8,177 bases of DNA from a virus (Duplodnaviria; Heunggongvirae; Uroviricota; Caudoviricetes), in the IMG/VR virus record IMGVR_UViG_2690316153_000010. One strand, given 5' to 3'. Below the pieces are notes generated by a model. It ran no database searches, was not told where the DNA came from, and worked only from the letters and a program-made list of their open reading frames with translations. Positions 435-6,282 of this stretch are shown here, one piece after another. A program made the position numbers and the translations under genes. The first letter of the stretch is position 1; every line of letters starts with the position of its first letter.

Positions 435-1084
435 GCCACCATCTCCCTGACCAGTTTTTCCGCCTGCTGGCGAACCTGCGCCAGAAATGCCTCACCACAT
501 GCCTCAAGTTCATCGCGCCCGATGTAGCTGATTGCCGGTCCCTTCCAGGTCTTGTCGAAAACAGCAATAGCACCAGCGAAGAAAGCACCTGTTGGCACCT
601 GCTTTTCGTCTTTCGGGATAAACCAGGCAGGCAGTTCAAAACCAATACGCCCGCGAATAAAAGCAATATGATCTGCACCTTCCGGCCACCACACTTCGCC
701 GGTGGCAGCTTTGATCAGGAAAACATAGCGCCCGCCTTTATCACGCATGGCACTGGCATGCTTCATGATGTAACGCATGCCGGTGATGTATTGCCCCTCA
801 TGCTGACTGGCGCGGCTGTACGGGGGATTGCCAAAGGCAGCACCTTTAAGCTCCGCAAGACGTTCTGACCAGTCATGCGCCAGCGCGTTGTCTTCCGCCG
901 TGTAATACGCGGCACATTTGGCGTTATCACCGTCAGTGAACAGATCCAGAACAAACGGACCAAACAAGGTGTTAATTCCCCAGAAAATGTTGTCCGGCGT
1001 GCGCCACTGATCGCCCACTTCCTTCAGTTCATGGGCTGGTTTGTTCCGCAGTTCTACCAGCGCCTGGCAATATTTATTACTCAT
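431..1084 (-). CDS. Phage Dam-like N6-adenine DNA methyltransferase (copy 1)
   Basis: 217-aa ORF starting MSNKYCQ. Contains the NPPY catalytic motif (FGNPPYSR) typical of N6-adenine methyltransferases. TAATG overlap with the upstream remnant ORF. Confidence 0.8.
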   Translation of the reverse strand: MSNKYCQALVELRNKPAHELKEVGDQWRTPDNIFWGINTLFGPFVLDLFTDGDNAKCAAYYTAEDNALAHDWSERLAELKGAAFGNPPYSRASQHEGQYITGMRYIMKHASAMRDKGGRYVFLIKAATGEVWWPEGADHIAFIRGRIGFELPAWFIPKDEKQVPTGAFFAGAIAVFDKTWKGPAISYIGRDELEACGEAFLAQVRQQAEKLVREMVA

Positions 1085-1178: not shown

Positions 1179-1610
1179 TCACCCCCTGAATCCTGCCGGG
1201 ATCTGGCTGTAGTCCACGTTGTCGTAACTGGCTTTGAAGTACGGGTCTTCACGTTTTTCTGTGTGCGTGCTGACGGACGGCGATAAGCGCAGGGAAAGCT
1301 CATCCCATTTTTCCCGCAACTTCGACGGGCTGATCCACATTGCATAGGCATACACCAGTTCCTTGCAGACATACGTTCCCCGTTCATTTCCCCCATGAAT
1401 CACACTCACCGGGTCAACACCCAAATTCTGGGTGTTGGTCAATTCATGAACAAGCTCAACAGTTTGTTGGCTGGAAAGAAACTTTCCTGGCTCCTTGGTT
1501 CTGGCATTTGCACCAGATGCTACTGCTGCGCGATGCAGATCGTTCAGGCTGTAACGCCCATAAGCATCACGACGAACTTCAATACCATCAATGACCATCA
1601 GATTATTCAT
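1179..1610 (-). CDS. KilA-N domain protein, chimeric: KilA-N N-terminal domain fused to the C-terminal ~50 aa of the replication-initiator-like protein
   Basis: ORF 1179-1643 trimmed to the ATG at 1610, which has a GAGGAG RBS 9 nt upstream. GTYVCKELVYAYAMWISP resembles the KilA-N signature. Bases 1179 to about 1330 are near-identical to 3483 to about 3640. Confidence 0.7.
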   Translation of the reverse strand: MNNLMVIDGIEVRRDAYGRYSLNDLHRAAVASGANARTKEPGKFLSSQQTVELVHELTNTQNLGVDPVSVIHGGNERGTYVCKELVYAYAMWISPSKLREKWDELSLRLSPSVSTHTEKREDPYFKASYDNVDYSQIPAGFRG

Positions 1611-1629
1611 ACTTCGTTTCTCCTCTTGA

Positions 1630-2019
1630 TCAGGCGGCTGCACCCGCCGTTTTCTCGTACTTACTGATAGTGATCTCGACCTTCCCTTTCGGGATAACCG
1701 GTCCCCACTCCACCAGCATTCTTTTCACCTGACTGTCGTCTTCCCACACACCCGCATGGGTCAGGGCGTCAAACAGCGCCTTGTTATAGTTGTCCAGATC
1801 GCGGATCCGGTTATCCGGAGGAAACAACACGATCTCCACTGAAGCAGGTGCCGACGTTGGTTTCGGCAGACGACGTAACTGCTCAACTATTGCTGCGCAC
1901 GCCGCGCTCTGGAATTTGCGCCCCGCTGCGCTTATCAGACTCTTACCAGCAAACGCCCCTTTGTTGGGGTGTCGCCAGTACGTGTTCACGCTGGGCGGGA
2001 AAGGCAAGATCAGCTTCAT
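1630..2019 (-). CDS. rusA: RusA-family Holliday junction resolvase (copy 2)
   Basis: 129-aa ORF differing from copy 1 at 2 residues (E31A, I45V). Same motifs. ATGA overlap with the upstream LexA-like gene. Confidence 0.88.
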   Translation of the reverse strand: MKLILPFPPSVNTYWRHPNKGAFAGKSLISAAGRKFQSAACAAIVEQLRRLPKPTSAPASVEIVLFPPDNRIRDLDNYNKALFDALTHAGVWEDDSQVKRMLVEWGPVIPKGKVEITISKYEKTAGAAA

Positions 2020-2342
2020 ACTTTCAGGCCCCTCTCATGTAACCAGTGGGCTGCACGCAGCCTGGCGTTTTCCTCACCGGCAAGCAGTGCGCGGATAATC
2101 CCGACCGCCTCGCTGTCGTCGTCCTTCACCGCGGTATGAAGAGTTATCCCCCGGGCCACGCCACGCTTTATCGTGATGACGCCTTTTTTCTCCAGTGCGC
2201 GAAGATGCTCCACCGCTGCATTCACCGAACGGTATCCCAGCATGGTTGCCACCTCCTGATTGGTTGGCGGAAAGCCACGTTCTTGCTGGTAAGAAATCAG
2301 CATATCCAGCACCTGCTGCTGGCATTGAGTTAACGTCGTCAT
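2016..2342 (-). CDS. LexA N-terminal DNA-binding-domain-like protein with no S24 peptidase domain
   Basis: 108-aa ORF. Residues 4-66 (LTQCQQQVLDMLISYQQERGFPPTNQEVATMLGYRSVNAAVEHLRALEKKGVITIKRGVARGITL) align with the LexA winged-helix domain ([65 protein letters not shown]). No Ala-Gly cleavage site and no Ser/Lys dyad. ATGA overlaps at both ends. Confidence 0.7.
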   Translation of the reverse strand: MTTLTQCQQQVLDMLISYQQERGFPPTNQEVATMLGYRSVNAAVEHLRALEKKGVITIKRGVARGITLHTAVKDDDSEAVGIIRALLAGEENARLRAAHWLHERGLKV

Positions 2343-2992
2343 GCCGCCATCTCCCTGACCAGTTTTTCCGCCTGCTGGCGAACCTGCGCCAGAAAGGCCT
2401 CACCACATGCCTCAAGTTCATCGCGCCCGATGTAGCTGATTGCCGGTCCCTTCCGGGTCTTGTCGAAAACAGCAATAGCACCAGCGAAGAAAGCGCCTGT
2501 CGGCACCTGCTTCTCGTCCTTCGGGATAAACCAGGCTGGCAGTTCAAAACCAATACGCCCGCGAATAAAAGCAATATGGTCTGCATCTTCCGGCCACCAA
2601 ACTTCGCTGGTGGCAGCTTTGATCAGGAAAACATAGCGCCCGCCTTTATCACGCATGGCACTGGCATGCTTCATGATGTAACGCATGCCGGTGATGTATT
2701 GCCCCTCATGCTGACTGGCGCGGCTGTACGGGGGATTACCAAAGGCAGCACCTTTAAGCTCCGCAAGACGTTCTGACCAGTCATGCGCCAGCGCGTTGTC
2801 TTCCGCCGTGTAATACGCGGCGCATTTGGCGTTATCACCATCAGTAAACAGATCCAGAACAAACGGGCCAAACAGGGTGTTAATTCCCCAGAAAATGTTG
2901 TCCGGCGTGCGCCACTGATCGCCCACTTCCTTCAGTTCATGGGCTGGTTTGTTCCGCAGCTCCACCAGCGCCTGGCAATATTTATTACTCAT
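2339..2992 (-). CDS. Phage Dam-like N6-adenine DNA methyltransferase (copy 2)
   Basis: ORF 2339-3025 trimmed to MSNKYCQ at 2992 by comparison with copy 1 and the TAATG overlap with the upstream stop. 4 amino-acid differences from copy 1. NPPY motif present. Confidence 0.8.
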   Translation of the reverse strand: MSNKYCQALVELRNKPAHELKEVGDQWRTPDNIFWGINTLFGPFVLDLFTDGDNAKCAAYYTAEDNALAHDWSERLAELKGAAFGNPPYSRASQHEGQYITGMRYIMKHASAMRDKGGRYVFLIKAATSEVWWPEDADHIAFIRGRIGFELPAWFIPKDEKQVPTGAFFAGAIAVFDKTRKGPAISYIGRDELEACGEAFLAQVRQQAEKLVREMAA

Positions 2993-3480
2993 TAAGCCCC
3001 CACGTAATTCCCTGACAGATACCACTCTTCACCCGATGCAGCGCGCTTGCTGCTTTTCCGTAAACACCGCTCACGACGCGCAAGAAAATTGTTTCGCTCT
3101 TGCTGGGAGTGGCTTTCACGGAATGCCGCCATCCACACCGTTGCAGCACGACGGTATAAGCCCCTGGACTCCAGTTCTTCCGCCTGGCGGGTCAGGCACA
3201 AAATCACCCGGGGATCGTTAGTGCCGACATAGAAATTGCGCACAGGTCTGGATTCACGAACTGGTTGCGGTTCCGGCTCCTGCGGTATCTCAGTCAGCCG
3301 CGGGAAATGTCTGCGTGTATCCCCTTCACAACGGTGAGCCACACGCCCACTCTGACGTAACTTGCTTGCTGACTGCAGAACGCGCTGTCGTGAGTAACCT
3401 GCAAAAGCATCCGCAATGTCTCCGGAAGTACACCCCGGATGGGCTTCAATGAATTTCTGAACGTCATTCAAAAGACTCAT
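2992..3480 (-). CDS. Hypothetical regulator, possibly PerC-family-like
   Basis: 162-aa ORF (track ORF 2992-3486 trimmed to MSLL, since the upstream stop is at 3483-3485). The segment AEELESRGLYRRAATVWMAAFRES...ERNNFLARRERCL resembles the PerC-family motif as I recall it. Family assignment is tentative. Confidence 0.5.
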   Translation of the reverse strand: MSLLNDVQKFIEAHPGCTSGDIADAFAGYSRQRVLQSASKLRQSGRVAHRCEGDTRRHFPRLTEIPQEPEPQPVRESRPVRNFYVGTNDPRVILCLTRQAEELESRGLYRRAATVWMAAFRESHSQQERNNFLARRERCLRKSSKRAASGEEWYLSGNYVGA

Positions 3481-3482
3481 GA

Positions 3483-4424
3483 TCACCCCCTGAATCCTGC
3501 CGGGATCTGGCTGTAGTCCACGTTGTCGTAACTGGCTTTGAAGTACGGGTCTTCGCGTTTTTCGGTGTACGTGCTGACGGACGGCGATAAGCGCAGGGAA
3601 AGCTCATCCCATTTTTCCCGCAGCTTCGACGGGCTGAGCACGTTACGGCACCAGAACGGATCGCGACTGACGCGGCTGTACATCTCGCAGATTTGTTTAT
3701 GAGTACGACCATCCTGCACACACATCAGGCGAATTTCGTTTGCCCAGGCTGTCCAGTTCGGTTCTTTGGGACGAACCACCTCGCCGTCACATTCGGCGGC
3801 ATGCTCGTACAGGGCGATGATTTTTTTCCAGAGCCACTGTGCGCAGGTCAAATCATCCTGCGTCCCCCACTGGCGCTTTTTAGGGCTGAATACAACCGCA
3901 TCAGGATGGCGAGTTAAAAAATCCTGTTCAGCCGTCTGCGTGTCCGGTTGCGAAGCGTCCGGACGAGAAGTTTTTTTATCTGACGGATCATGTTTTGATT
4001 TTACTGACGGATCCCCACCAGATTCTGACGGGTGAAAACCCGCTTTTTTGCCAGATTTCGACGCATCAAATTTTGACGGGTCAGATTTTGATGCGTCAGA
4101 TTTTGACGGGTCAGAATCTGACAGTTGAGAAAATGCCGCTGCCTGAAGCTTCGCAACGTTAAGCTGATAAACATTCGACGCATTGCGGTTACCCTGGCGA
4201 CGCGCCCTACGCGTTAACCAGCCTTCTGCTTCCAGCCGTGCGATAGCCGTTCTGACGGTACTCATCCCCGCGCCAATCTGGCGGGCAATGGTTTCAATTG
4301 ATGGCCAGCACACACCTTCGTCATTACTGAAATCAGCCAGGCGGGCCATAATTGCCACGCTGGATAATTTCATGCCTGATGCAGCGCAACCATCCCATAC
4401 ATAGCCGGTTAATTTAGTGCTCAT
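3483..4424 (-). CDS. Replication initiator-like protein: N-terminal HTH/winged-helix domain, low-complexity DPSKS repeat linker, C-terminal tail shared with the KilA-N gene
   Basis: 313-aa ORF. N-terminal segment (GYVWDGCAASGMKLSSVAIMARLADFSNDEGVCWPSIETIARQIGAGMSTVRTAIARLEAEGWL) looks like the HTH domain of phage replication initiators. Internal tandem DNA repeats resemble lambda O-type iterons. Position downstream of cro/cII-like genes fits. Confidence 0.65.
   Translation of the reverse strand: MSTKLTGYVWDGCAASGMKLSSVAIMARLADFSNDEGVCWPSIETIARQIGAGMSTVRTAIARLEAEGWLTRRARRQGNRNASNVYQLNVAKLQAAAFSQLSDSDPSKSDASKSDPSKFDASKSGKKAGFHPSESGGDPSVKSKHDPSDKKTSRPDASQPDTQTAEQDFLTRHPDAVVFSPKKRQWGTQDDLTCAQWLWKKIIALYEHAAECDGEVVRPKEPNWTAWANEIRLMCVQDGRTHKQICEMYSRVSRDPFWCRNVLSPSKLREKWDELSLRLSPSVSTYTEKREDPYFKASYDNVDYSQIPAGFRG
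3975..4127. repeat. Iteron-like 15-bp tandem repeats (consensus AGATTTTGACGGGTC, core TGACGG); candidate origin of replication inside the initiator gene
   Basis: Five contiguous 15-bp units at 4053-4127, plus three degenerate copies at 3975-3989, 3996-4013 and 4021-4035 interspersed with A/T runs. In the coding frame they give the pentapeptide repeat DPSKS/DASKS. Confidence 0.6.
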
Positions 4425-4433
4425 GACCGACCT

Positions 4434-4772
4434 CTATTTCCCTGAATTTACGACGAAACTGTTCGAGCGGGCTGAAGCACTCATGCTCATAGCCTTCGCG
4501 GAGGTAGATAACACGTTGTGTTTCCGGCTCCCAACGAATGACTCTGACGGGCACTCCGTAGTGATCTTTGAACCAGCGGTTAACTTGTCGCAAAGGACTG
4601 TCTCCTTCTGCCGGTTGAAATCACCCACAGCCCACTCTGCAAAGCTGTGGGTTACAATTTCCCTGTCACCTGGTACATTCACTGCATAGCAATACTCCAC
4701 CTTCGCTTTTCCACCCGGTACAGGAAGCGCAATCAGTTGCGAGCGACGGTAGTGTGTTGTTAAACTGTTCAT
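4434..4772 (-). CDS. Hypothetical protein; C-terminal half may be out of frame (possible frameshift or pseudogene)
   Basis: 112-aa ORF with GGAGA RBS 9 nt upstream. The last ~50 residues are S/T/A-rich and low in complexity, while the -1 frame (4414-4620) is open for 68 codons, protein-like, and ends overlapping the next gene start. Confidence 0.4.
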
Positions 4773-5365
4773 GCGTTAGTTTCTCCACAGTCACGACACG
4801 CCACGGCGCCCGGAGCTGCACACTCGCGGGCGTCATTACTTTCTGAAATGCAAAAAATTTTGTAGACCAGTGCTGCATGCTCCTGCAGCTTCGAAATTGA
4901 GAGGTACAGCTCGTCGTTAATTGCTGTCTTCTCATGCGGTTCCACTACACCGTCTTCAATTGCTGAACGAATCTGTTTTGAATAACTGCCGATCTGTTCA
5001 ATGACTTCCAGCAGGCGCTGGTTAATATCGGCGTTGTCCACATCCTCGACGTCAGGAAGAGACACAAAGACGCCATTTGCAGACTGCGCCACAGCGTCAG
5101 CAATGAAGTGAGTTCCACCAGCACGTTGCAAAATCATTGCCCATCCCAGCGGGAAAATCTGATCGCCATCGGCACGAAGGCGGTTAAATAATGCGTTCTC
5201 TGTTACATCCAGCCAGTCAGCTGCTTCAGCGTAACCACCCGGCAACTTTGCGATAGTTTTTCTGACAGCTTTCACGTACCACTCAGGCTGTTTTTCTACT
5301 TTCCAGTGATGCTTACCCACGGTTAGCCTCATCGTTCTGTGGTTTCTGTTAATCGATTTATCCAT
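4769..5365 (-). CDS. CII/YdaT-like regulator (positional cII equivalent)
   Basis: ORF 4769-5434; start uncertain (candidate ATGs at 5365, 5377, 5332), chosen to limit overlap with cro. HTH-like segment [22 protein letters not shown]. Lies directly downstream of the Cro/YdaS-like gene. Family assignment by recollection only. Confidence 0.5.
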
Positions 5366-5558
5366 TAGATTTTTCATAAAGCTCAGGTTTAAATGGCAAC
5401 CGTCCGCAAGTTCTATATGCAGCTTCTGCTGCACGTCCTTTTGGAATTAACTGGCCCGGACGGTTTCGCCACTGATAAACGGCTTCAGTTGTTATGCCGA
5501 AAAAAGCAGCAACTTTCTCAATACTGCCGAAGTAGCTTTCGATATCGTCAGTTGTCAT
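5358..5558 (-). CDS. Cro/YdaS-like HTH regulator
   Basis: 66-aa ORF transcribed divergently from the repressor. GGAGGG RBS 4 nt upstream of the ATG. HTH-like segment SIEKVAAFFGITTEAVYQWRNR. Confidence 0.7.
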   Translation of the reverse strand: MTTDDIESYFGSIEKVAAFFGITTEAVYQWRNRPGQLIPKGRAAEAAYRTCGRLPFKPELYEKSNG

Positions 5559-5655: not shown

Positions 5656-6282
5656 ATGGAAACGGTTGGTCAGCGTATAAAAGCTCTGAGAAGAGTTACC
5701 AGAACGTCCCAGAAAGAATTGGGTAAATTTTGTGGAGTAAGCGACGTTGCTGTGGGGTACTGGGAGAAAGACATCAATACCCCTGGCGGGGAGGCACTTT
5801 CGAAATTAGCGAAGTTCTTCAATACGTCAATAGATTACATTCTTTACGGTGCTGAGTTTGAAGGCAAACTCGTCACAAACATGCGCAGAGTTCCTGTAAT
5901 ATCGTGGGTTCAGGCTGGGCAGTTTACTGAGTGCAGGGCAGCAGAAGTGTTTAGTGAAGTGGACAAGTGGGTAGATACATCATTAAAGGTTGGTGATAAC
6001 TCATTTGCATTAGAGGTTAAAGGTGACTCCATGACTAACCCTAATGGCCTCCCAACAATACCAGAAGGCGCAACAGTGATTGTAGATCCAGATGCAGAAC
6101 CTCGTCATGGAAAAATAGTCATCGCTCGACTTGATGGAACAAACGAAGCTACAGTAAAAAAATTAGTCATCGATGGCCCTCAAAAGTTTTTAGTGCCATT
6201 AAATCCTCGGTATCCCAACATCCCTATCAATGGTAATTGCCTTATCATTGGTGTAGTCAAAGGAGTTCAATACGAACTCTAA
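5656..6282 (+). CDS. cI-like prophage repressor: N-terminal XRE-type HTH plus C-terminal S24 (LexA-like) autopeptidase domain
   Basis: 208-aa ORF. HTH at the N-terminus, Ala-Gly cleavage site in WVQAGQF, catalytic Ser in KGDSM and Lys in TVKKL. Divergent from cro. Confidence 0.9.
   Translation: METVGQRIKALRRVTRTSQKELGKFCGVSDVAVGYWEKDINTPGGEALSKLAKFFNTSIDYILYGAEFEGKLVTNMRRVPVISWVQAGQFTECRAAEVFSEVDKWVDTSLKVGDNSFALEVKGDSMTNPNGLPTIPEGATVIVDPDAEPRHGKIVIARLDGTNEATVKKLVIDGPQKFLVPLNPRYPNIPINGNCLIIGVVKGVQYEL

Follow-up and report, generated by a model that had tools for sequence, protein, structure and literature searches.

The initiator gene and the repeats within it

The subject of this study is a replication initiator gene, and the array of short repeats in its middle, in an 8,177-nt stretch of virus record IMGVR_UViG_2690316153_000010; the whole of that stretch is called the window below. 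This stretch represents the early region of a lambdoid E. coli prophage, and the initiator gene lies on its minus strand at 3483-4424 and encodes a protein of 313 amino acids (aa). Our analysis makes it very likely that positions 3942-4122, in the linker-coding part of this gene, are a lambda-type replication origin of the prophage, and the support for this reading is comparative and structural.

The initiator matches the PHROG family phrog_391 'replication initiation O-like' with an E value of 5.5e-135, and its architecture was predicted with an AlphaFold2 model built on 25 homologues. In the model, aa 1-98 (4131-4424, minus strand) form a winged helix-turn-helix domain, with the helix-turn-helix and the wing at predicted local distance difference test (pLDDT) scores of 70-88. 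Pfam places an HTH_36 match at aa 23-70 and weak DnaD_N-type matches, under its cut-off, in the same domain, and no Rep_3 domain was matched in the initiator. The best Foldseek matches of this N-terminal domain are winged-helix regulators of the MarR/ArsR type, which are dimeric and bind palindromic sites, and we presume it to be the DNA-binding part of the initiator. The winged-helix domain alone was matched in the Foldseek search against the PDB, which returned nothing for the rest of the protein. There follow a linker of aa 102-162 (3939-4121, minus strand), predicted to be disordered (pLDDT below 50, without secondary structure), a helical C-terminal domain of aa 167-278 (3591-3926, minus strand; pLDDT 84-92), of which the model shows the helical part at about aa 185-278, and a disordered C-terminal tail (3486-3590, minus strand) that ends ...VDYSQIPAGFRG, a peptide common to initiators with unrelated C-terminal domains. 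Direct pairwise BLASTP shows this C-terminal domain to be homologous to those of lambda O (E 3e-26) and phi80 gp15 (E 4e-25); it had no matches among Pfam, NCBIfam and PDB sequences, and the link to lambda O was found only by the direct comparison. Both lambda O and phi80 gp15 match Phage_rep_O (PF04492), whereas the initiator of the window does not. Judged by these matches, the initiator is a mosaic, a different DNA-binding head with sites of its own on a body of the lambda O type, because its N-terminal domain belongs to HTH_36 and not to PF04492, yet its C-terminal domain is lambda-O-like.

The repeats were detected by several methods. With Tandem Repeats Finder, an array of period 15 was found at 4052-4115 (4.3 copies, 81% matches), which can also be read with a period of 30 (2.1 copies, 88%), and a repeat search gave five copies at an exact 15-bp spacing (4052-4126) together with degenerate copies at 3981-3999 and 4004-4033. 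The degenerate motif TGACNNRTCARAW, with at most one mismatch, occurs 12 times in the window as against 0.96 expected, a number that 200 shuffles never reached; of the 12, 10 fall within 3978-4116. Neither Tandem Repeats Finder nor the motif count revealed a further repeat cluster in the window. The exact iteron-like motif TGACTGGTCAGAA is also present inside both copies of a Dam methylase gene in the window (863-875 and 2771-2783, minus strand); these two matches stem from the duplication of one sequence, and chance alone would give about one match.

The best-conserved register of the array is a 13-bp dyad-symmetric site, (G/A)TCA-N5-TGAC. On the gene (minus) strand the sites read GTCAGATTCTGAC (i1, 4110-4122), GTCAAAATCTGAC (i2, 4095-4107), ATCAAAATCTGAC (i3, 4080-4092), GTCAAAATTTGAT (i4, 4065-4077) and GTCGAAATCTGGC (i5, 4050-4062), followed 33 bp past i5 by GTCAGAATCTGGT (i6, 4017-4029). 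Sites i1-i5 (4050-4122) stand head to tail every 15 bp and code for SDxSK pentapeptide repeats, and we consider them candidate initiator-binding sites (iterons). The five contiguous 15-bp units that the initial annotation had placed at 4053-4127 are real, with their register refined to 13-bp dyad sites at 4050-4122. It had also listed three degenerate copies at 3975-4035; there are repeats in that interval, but they are better described as i6 plus the heads of two longer, 24-bp units. Scanning one genome per species with the N-terminal domain yielded 80 related loci across Enterobacterales, and a family site consensus was drawn from 344 sites at 72 loci. The 15-bp spacing holds in 228 of 272 neighbouring pairs, and the 33-bp spacing was found again in 19 related loci.

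The two 24-bp units are tandem (3990-4013 and 3966-3989, minus strand), and each consists of GATCCGTCAG followed by an A/T-rich tail. Each begins with GATC, the Dam site, at 4010-4013 and 3986-3989. Positions 3967-4014 are 65% A+T within a gene of 53% G+C, and of all 40-mers in the gene 3966-4005 is the least stable; we presume that 3966-4013 is a DNA-unwinding element. The description of the repeats as lying beside A/T runs thus holds insofar as a zone of low stability adjoins them, although that zone is only moderately A/T-rich. Past it lies a G+C-rich repeat, GTCCGG at 3942-3947 and again, 15 bp apart, at 3957-3962, with the complementary CCGGAC at 3959-3964. Lambda has an inverted repeat to the right of its A/T-rich region, and by analogy 3942-3964 could possibly be the right arm of the origin. 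DnaA boxes are absent in and beside 3940-4130, and their count in the window is not above chance.

Conservation of the repeat region as DNA

An array of this kind could be conserved because of the peptide it encodes or because of its DNA. We defined repeat units by the protein pattern alone, which gave 313 units in 64 genes (3-10 per gene), and used the rest of the same 64 genes for the comparison codons. The serine at position 4 of the unit is encoded by TCA in 86% of units, as against 17% elsewhere in the genes; the serine at position 1 uses TCT for 85% of its Ser codons (9% elsewhere), the lysine at position 5 is AAA in 99.5% (62% elsewhere), and the aspartate at position 2 is GAC in 82% (46% elsewhere). 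Codon 1 has T as its third base in 86% of units despite the residue being S, F, P, Y or T. The non-repeated flank is constrained likewise, with one column NNA in 63 of the 64 genes where the residue is S, Q, V or L, and the codons of i6 are also conserved as DNA; for example, one column is TCA or CCA, and the two after it are GAA and TCT. As a control inside these genes, conserved residues of the N-terminal domain were compared with those of the linker: the major codon accounts for a fraction of 0.53 in the former and 0.86 in the latter (p 8e-6), and the commonest third base for 0.56 and 0.82, respectively (p 5e-8). From the codon usage and this within-gene control it follows that the DNA of the repeat region is itself under constraint, beyond what the protein needs. 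Conservation at the protein level only, which the initial annotation had named as the outcome that would count against an origin, is therefore not what we found: the codons are nearly fixed, and third bases outlast changes of residue. The predicted disordered stretch maps exactly onto the zone conserved as DNA.

The low-stability zone is conserved along with the sites. The 40-mer of lowest stability begins 0-30 nt after the conserved SGGDP codons, just past the repeats, in 60 of 72 homologues. GATC occurs in the zone at 2.04 per 75 nt and elsewhere in the genes at 0.25, an enrichment of about 8-fold, and every locus has at least one. Among the codons of the zone, a GTA valine is found in 59 of 64 genes and GAT-CCG in 58-60 of 64, and the zone is kept in relatives whose repeats differ, for example as GAT CCA CAA GTA in those with 51-52% identity in the N-terminal domain. 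Beyond the zone, third bases are kept while residues vary among 50 homologues, one column being NNG in 49 of the 50 with A, G, S, E, P, T or V encoded.

The sequence of the repeats varies with the kind of N-terminal domain that the initiator has. In a subfamily with 67% identity in that domain, the 15-bp units, GTCAA-N3-TTGAC, are closely related, and relatives 51% identical have 33-bp repeats. In phage mEp460_4F5, the N-terminal domain is unrelated and five to six different 23-bp repeats occupy the same relative place (L004 1991-2149), while the C-terminal half is 97% identical to that of the window, from window position 3979, right after the A/T-rich zone. SfV orf39, whose N-terminal domain is also unrelated, has its own array of 24-42-bp and 12-bp repeats at the same relative place (L007 2400-2554), and the initiator of a Rac-like E. 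coli prophage likewise carries an array of its own. Judging from their position, the arrays of mEp460_4F5 and SfV are likely to be the origins of those phages. mEp460_4F5 also has a 15-nt repeat of about 80% A+T, with copies 24 bp apart. The number of units changes too: E. coli genes otherwise 98% identical have an array shorter by two units (303 aa) or longer by three (328 aa) than that of the 313-aa protein. Units of 15 bp can be added or dropped without harm to the protein, the sites being located in a disordered linker.

Genomic setting and the missing helicase loader

The initiator gene belongs to a rightward-type early operon, which runs on the minus strand of the window, opposite a cI-like repressor gene (5656-6282, plus strand). 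It comes after genes for a cro-like protein (5358-5558), a cII-like protein (4769-5434) and a DUF4222 protein (4414-4593), and is followed by genes for a PerC-like protein (2992-3486), a Dam methylase (2339-3025), a LexA-like protein (2016-2342), RusA (1630-2019) and a KilA-N protein (1179-1643), with another Dam copy at 431-1084. The distal replication module is present twice in the window, the second copy (1-1333) being rearranged relative to 1586-3637. Positions 1-434 match 1586-2019 (RusA) at 96.5%, 431-1099 match 2339-3007 (Dam) at 97%, and 1099-1333 match 3403-3637 (the 3′ end of the initiator gene together with the beginning of the PerC-like one) at 97%; missing from the second copy are the LexA-like gene and the greater part of the PerC-like gene. 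The open reading frame at 1179-1643 (minus strand) joins a KilA-N domain to the last ~50 residues of the initiator (...SPSKLREKWDELSLRLSPSVSTHTEKREDPYFKASYDNVDYSQIPAGFRG), and this fusion is evidently a product of recombination at the 3′ end of an initiator gene.

A search of the whole window with Rfam gave no RNA families, and a promoter scan of 3400-4700 gave no promoters. Terminator-like hairpins within 3400-4700 were found on the antisense strand only. One of them, CGGGTGAAAACCCG followed by CTTTTTT (4029-4050, plus strand), lies between the fifth and sixth sites; its hairpin, at 4029-4042, looks weaker in the family consensus and not well conserved, as judged by eye from the codon table.

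The gene itself is widespread. Full-length copies are present in 1580 of 5426 complete E. coli genomes, that of strain FDAARGOS_1059 being 100% identical to the gene of the window, and genes 98-99% identical occur in the viable phages SfII, SfIV, PhiR29 and others. E. coli K-12 has a truncated copy adjoining yfdN, which we take to be the CPS-53 prophage gene yfdO. In the viable phages SfIV, SfII, KpF5 and PhiR29, this gene is the sole recognisable replication gene.

The observation that no P-like or DnaC-like gene follows the initiator in the window is borne out, the genes downstream being the PerC-like, Dam, LexA-like, RusA and KilA-N ones. A tblastn search with lambda P and phi80 gp14 gave no matches in the window, none of the 10 window proteins scanned matches the DnaC/IstB-type ATPase family, and SfIV and KpF5 are likewise without a loader gene. 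Among the 80 related loci, a lambda P-like gene follows the initiator in nine by tblastn (L074, one representative, was confirmed as PF06992), and a DnaC-like candidate follows it in five, of which both of those scanned (L053 and L087) match the IstB/DnaC-type ATPase family. The PerC-like gene was considered as a hidden loader, an idea rejected in view of its absence from KpF5 and many other loci.

The presence of a loader gene covaries with the C-terminal tail of the initiator (loci L012-L091). All nine P-associated initiators end WNxxxxW..L, as does lambda O, whose C-terminal domain is the part that contacts P. At the 43 loci without a loader the protein ends ..P.GFR(G/S/T) irrespective of the type of C-terminal domain, and this GFR tail is common to three unrelated C-terminal domains, namely the O type, Phg_2220_C and the SfV orf39 type. 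This pattern in the sequences suggests that the tail may determine the route of helicase loading. Of the 80 related loci, 35 have Dam-type methylase genes within 2.5 kb, two copies being present in the window, and many related phages supply Dam themselves. It is possible that phage Dam is linked to the firing of the origin. A tentative and rather doubtful proposal would take the family as a loader-less lambda replicon, in which the tail ...VDYSxxPxGFR(G/S) replaces the P-linked one and recruits the host helicase directly, and in which the GATC pair makes unwinding sensitive to Dam; we raise it because the tail covaries with the loader gene, GATC is enriched 8-fold and Dam-type genes are near.

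Interpretation and comparison with known origins

In the proposed mechanism, the N-terminal winged-helix domain of the initiator, probably as a dimer, would bind the six 13-bp sites. The resulting nucleoprotein complex would stress the adjoining 48-bp A/T-rich stretch with its two GATC sites, which would then melt. The lambda-O-type C-terminal domain and the tail would bring in the host replicative helicase, and this is the weakest step of the scheme. As the phage has no loader gene, the helicase presumably comes from the host DnaB-DnaC pool, either directly or through a host partner.

The constraint on the DNA could also have been produced by something other than initiation. The sites might bind the initiator for regulation only, in autoregulation through a block to transcription of the initiator gene or in control of copy number by titration or pairing, with the true origin elsewhere in the phage. 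Conservation at the DNA level suits any protein-binding role, and two exact copies of the motif lie outside the array, in the Dam genes; plasmid iterons, moreover, serve initiation as well as control. However, a purely regulatory model gives no role to the conserved GATC-bearing zone of low stability beside the sites. The layout and the orientation match the proven origins of lambda and phi80, the window has no other repeat cluster, and the outside motifs are a single duplicated sequence, with about one match expected by chance. We therefore regard a purely regulatory role as unlikely. It is very unlikely that the DNA is recognised by another protein altogether, be it a host protein, SeqA or Dam by way of the GATC pair, or a further phage regulator such as the PerC-like or LexA-like one, so as to control early transcription or methylation-dependent timing. 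The two conserved GATC sites and the Dam-type genes, within 2.5 kb in 35 of 80 loci and twice in the window, could be taken to speak for it, but the repeat sequence follows the N-terminal type of the initiator and not the neighbouring genes, and KpF5 and many other loci keep the array without PerC-like and LexA-like genes. The GATC pair is more readily understood as belonging to the unwinding zone, like the GATC sites of oriC and P1 oriR.

A simpler explanation would be that the SDxSK linker is of low complexity and prone to slippage, that its DNA is functionless, and that the identical codons stem from the recent expansion of one unit. The region does code for a predicted disordered linker, copy number shifts by whole units, and tandem units homogenise one another. 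Nevertheless, the codon identity spans genera whose N-terminal domains are saturated at synonymous sites, third bases persist through amino acid changes, the non-repeated flank is conserved in the same way, and dyad symmetry is not explained by selection on the protein. The codon comparison and the within-gene control largely refute this explanation, and we consider it highly improbable.

Several points weigh against the interpretation of 3942-4122 as an origin. DNA-level conservation indicates some function of the DNA, which is not necessarily that of an origin. The 64-72 loci are not independent, and the counts overstate the number of independent events because phage modules move horizontally; this concern is addressed by the within-gene control. 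The A/T-rich zone is merely 65% A+T, and intergenic and immunity-region stretches of the window are less stable than 3966-4005. A spacing of 15 bp sets neighbouring sites on different faces of the helix, whereas the spacing in lambda and phi80 is roughly 20-24 bp. No loader gene is present for the step after unwinding. In the papers that were read, no experiments on this initiator family were found; the repeats may have been described earlier. The SfIV genome paper mentions no origin or repeats, the SfI genome paper no origin, and the titles and abstract openings of the yfdO literature no origin.

The initiator gene is very common in E. coli and is found also in Klebsiella phages and in SfII and SfIV, which are serotype-converting phages of Shigella, yet it is usually annotated merely as a 'helix-turn-helix domain-containing protein'. 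An origin at 3942-4122 would provide a map for prophage induction, for the building of replicons from these phages and for the annotation of doubly constrained coding DNA, and the region is a clean natural case of DNA-level selection within a disordered protein linker. The mechanism is that of the textbook lambda origin and is not new, and it should therefore be no surprise to a specialist; the arrangement is a known one, and what we add is an example in a common, poorly annotated gene. Of more interest is how the helicase would be loaded in the absence of a P- or DnaC-like gene, together with a possible role of Dam methylation.

Placing an origin inside the gene of its binding protein has precedents outside the lambdoid phages. 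The 'replisome organiser' genes of phages of Gram-positive bacteria, such as SPP1 gene 38, contain the origin, and the weak DnaD_N-type matches of the present N-terminal domain are a further point of likeness, but those proteins differ from the present initiator in having other C-terminal domains and dedicated helicase loaders. The origin oriJ of the Rac prophage was considered as experimental support and dropped because the Rac initiator YdaU (DUF1376) is unrelated to the initiator of the window. In the plasmids pSC101, R6K and RK2 and in P1 oriR, arrays of direct repeats for a replicon-specific initiator lie beside an A/T-rich unwinding region, and in P1 oriR and oriC the unwinding region contains GATC sites. 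The present locus resembles the plasmid iteron origins in having direct repeats beside an A/T-rich region, and P1 oriR and oriC in having GATC in the zone. In contrast, plasmid Rep proteins (Rep_3) have two winged helices and their origin lies outside the rep gene, whereas here the repeats are inside the gene.

The closest parallels are with lambda and phi80, whose records show four annotated initiator sites within the gene, in the same relative place and orientation. In lambda, the initiator repeats lie in the linker-coding part of O with an A/T-rich stretch downstream (PMC7466680). The window shares with this origin the dyad-symmetric repeats in the linker-coding middle of the gene, the A/T-rich stretch on the downstream side, and the placement of the initiator gene after cro and cII. 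The differences are that the lambda record annotates four 18-bp iterons, ~20-24 bp apart, whereas here there are six 13-bp sites, five of them every 15 bp; that the zone is less A/T-rich here and has two conserved GATC sites; and that no P gene follows. The lambda parallel drawn in the initial annotation accordingly stands for the layout and even extends to the ancestry of half the protein, given the homology of the C-terminal domain with that of lambda O, but it does not extend to the N-terminal domain, which in lambda O is PF04492 and here is HTH_36, another winged-helix family. The phi80 origin, in gene 15, is alike in having four gp15 sites of 15-16 bp inside the gene and an A/T-rich stretch with GATC after them; its sites differ in sequence and are 21 bp apart, its initiator has a PF04492 N-terminal domain, and a P-like gene 14 follows.

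The origins of the Stx phages 933W and P27, with six iterons, offer a parallel for the variation in the number of units, in that the copy number of the sites and the length of the protein change together. They differ in being true lambda O/P replicons, and the initiator described here shares only the C-terminal domain with them. Compared with lambda, the extra iterons of the Stx-phage origins lengthen the initiator (PMC7466680), and in lambdoid origins generally the N-terminal domain of O and its sites form one specificity module, in which extra iterons likewise lengthen O (PMC7466680).

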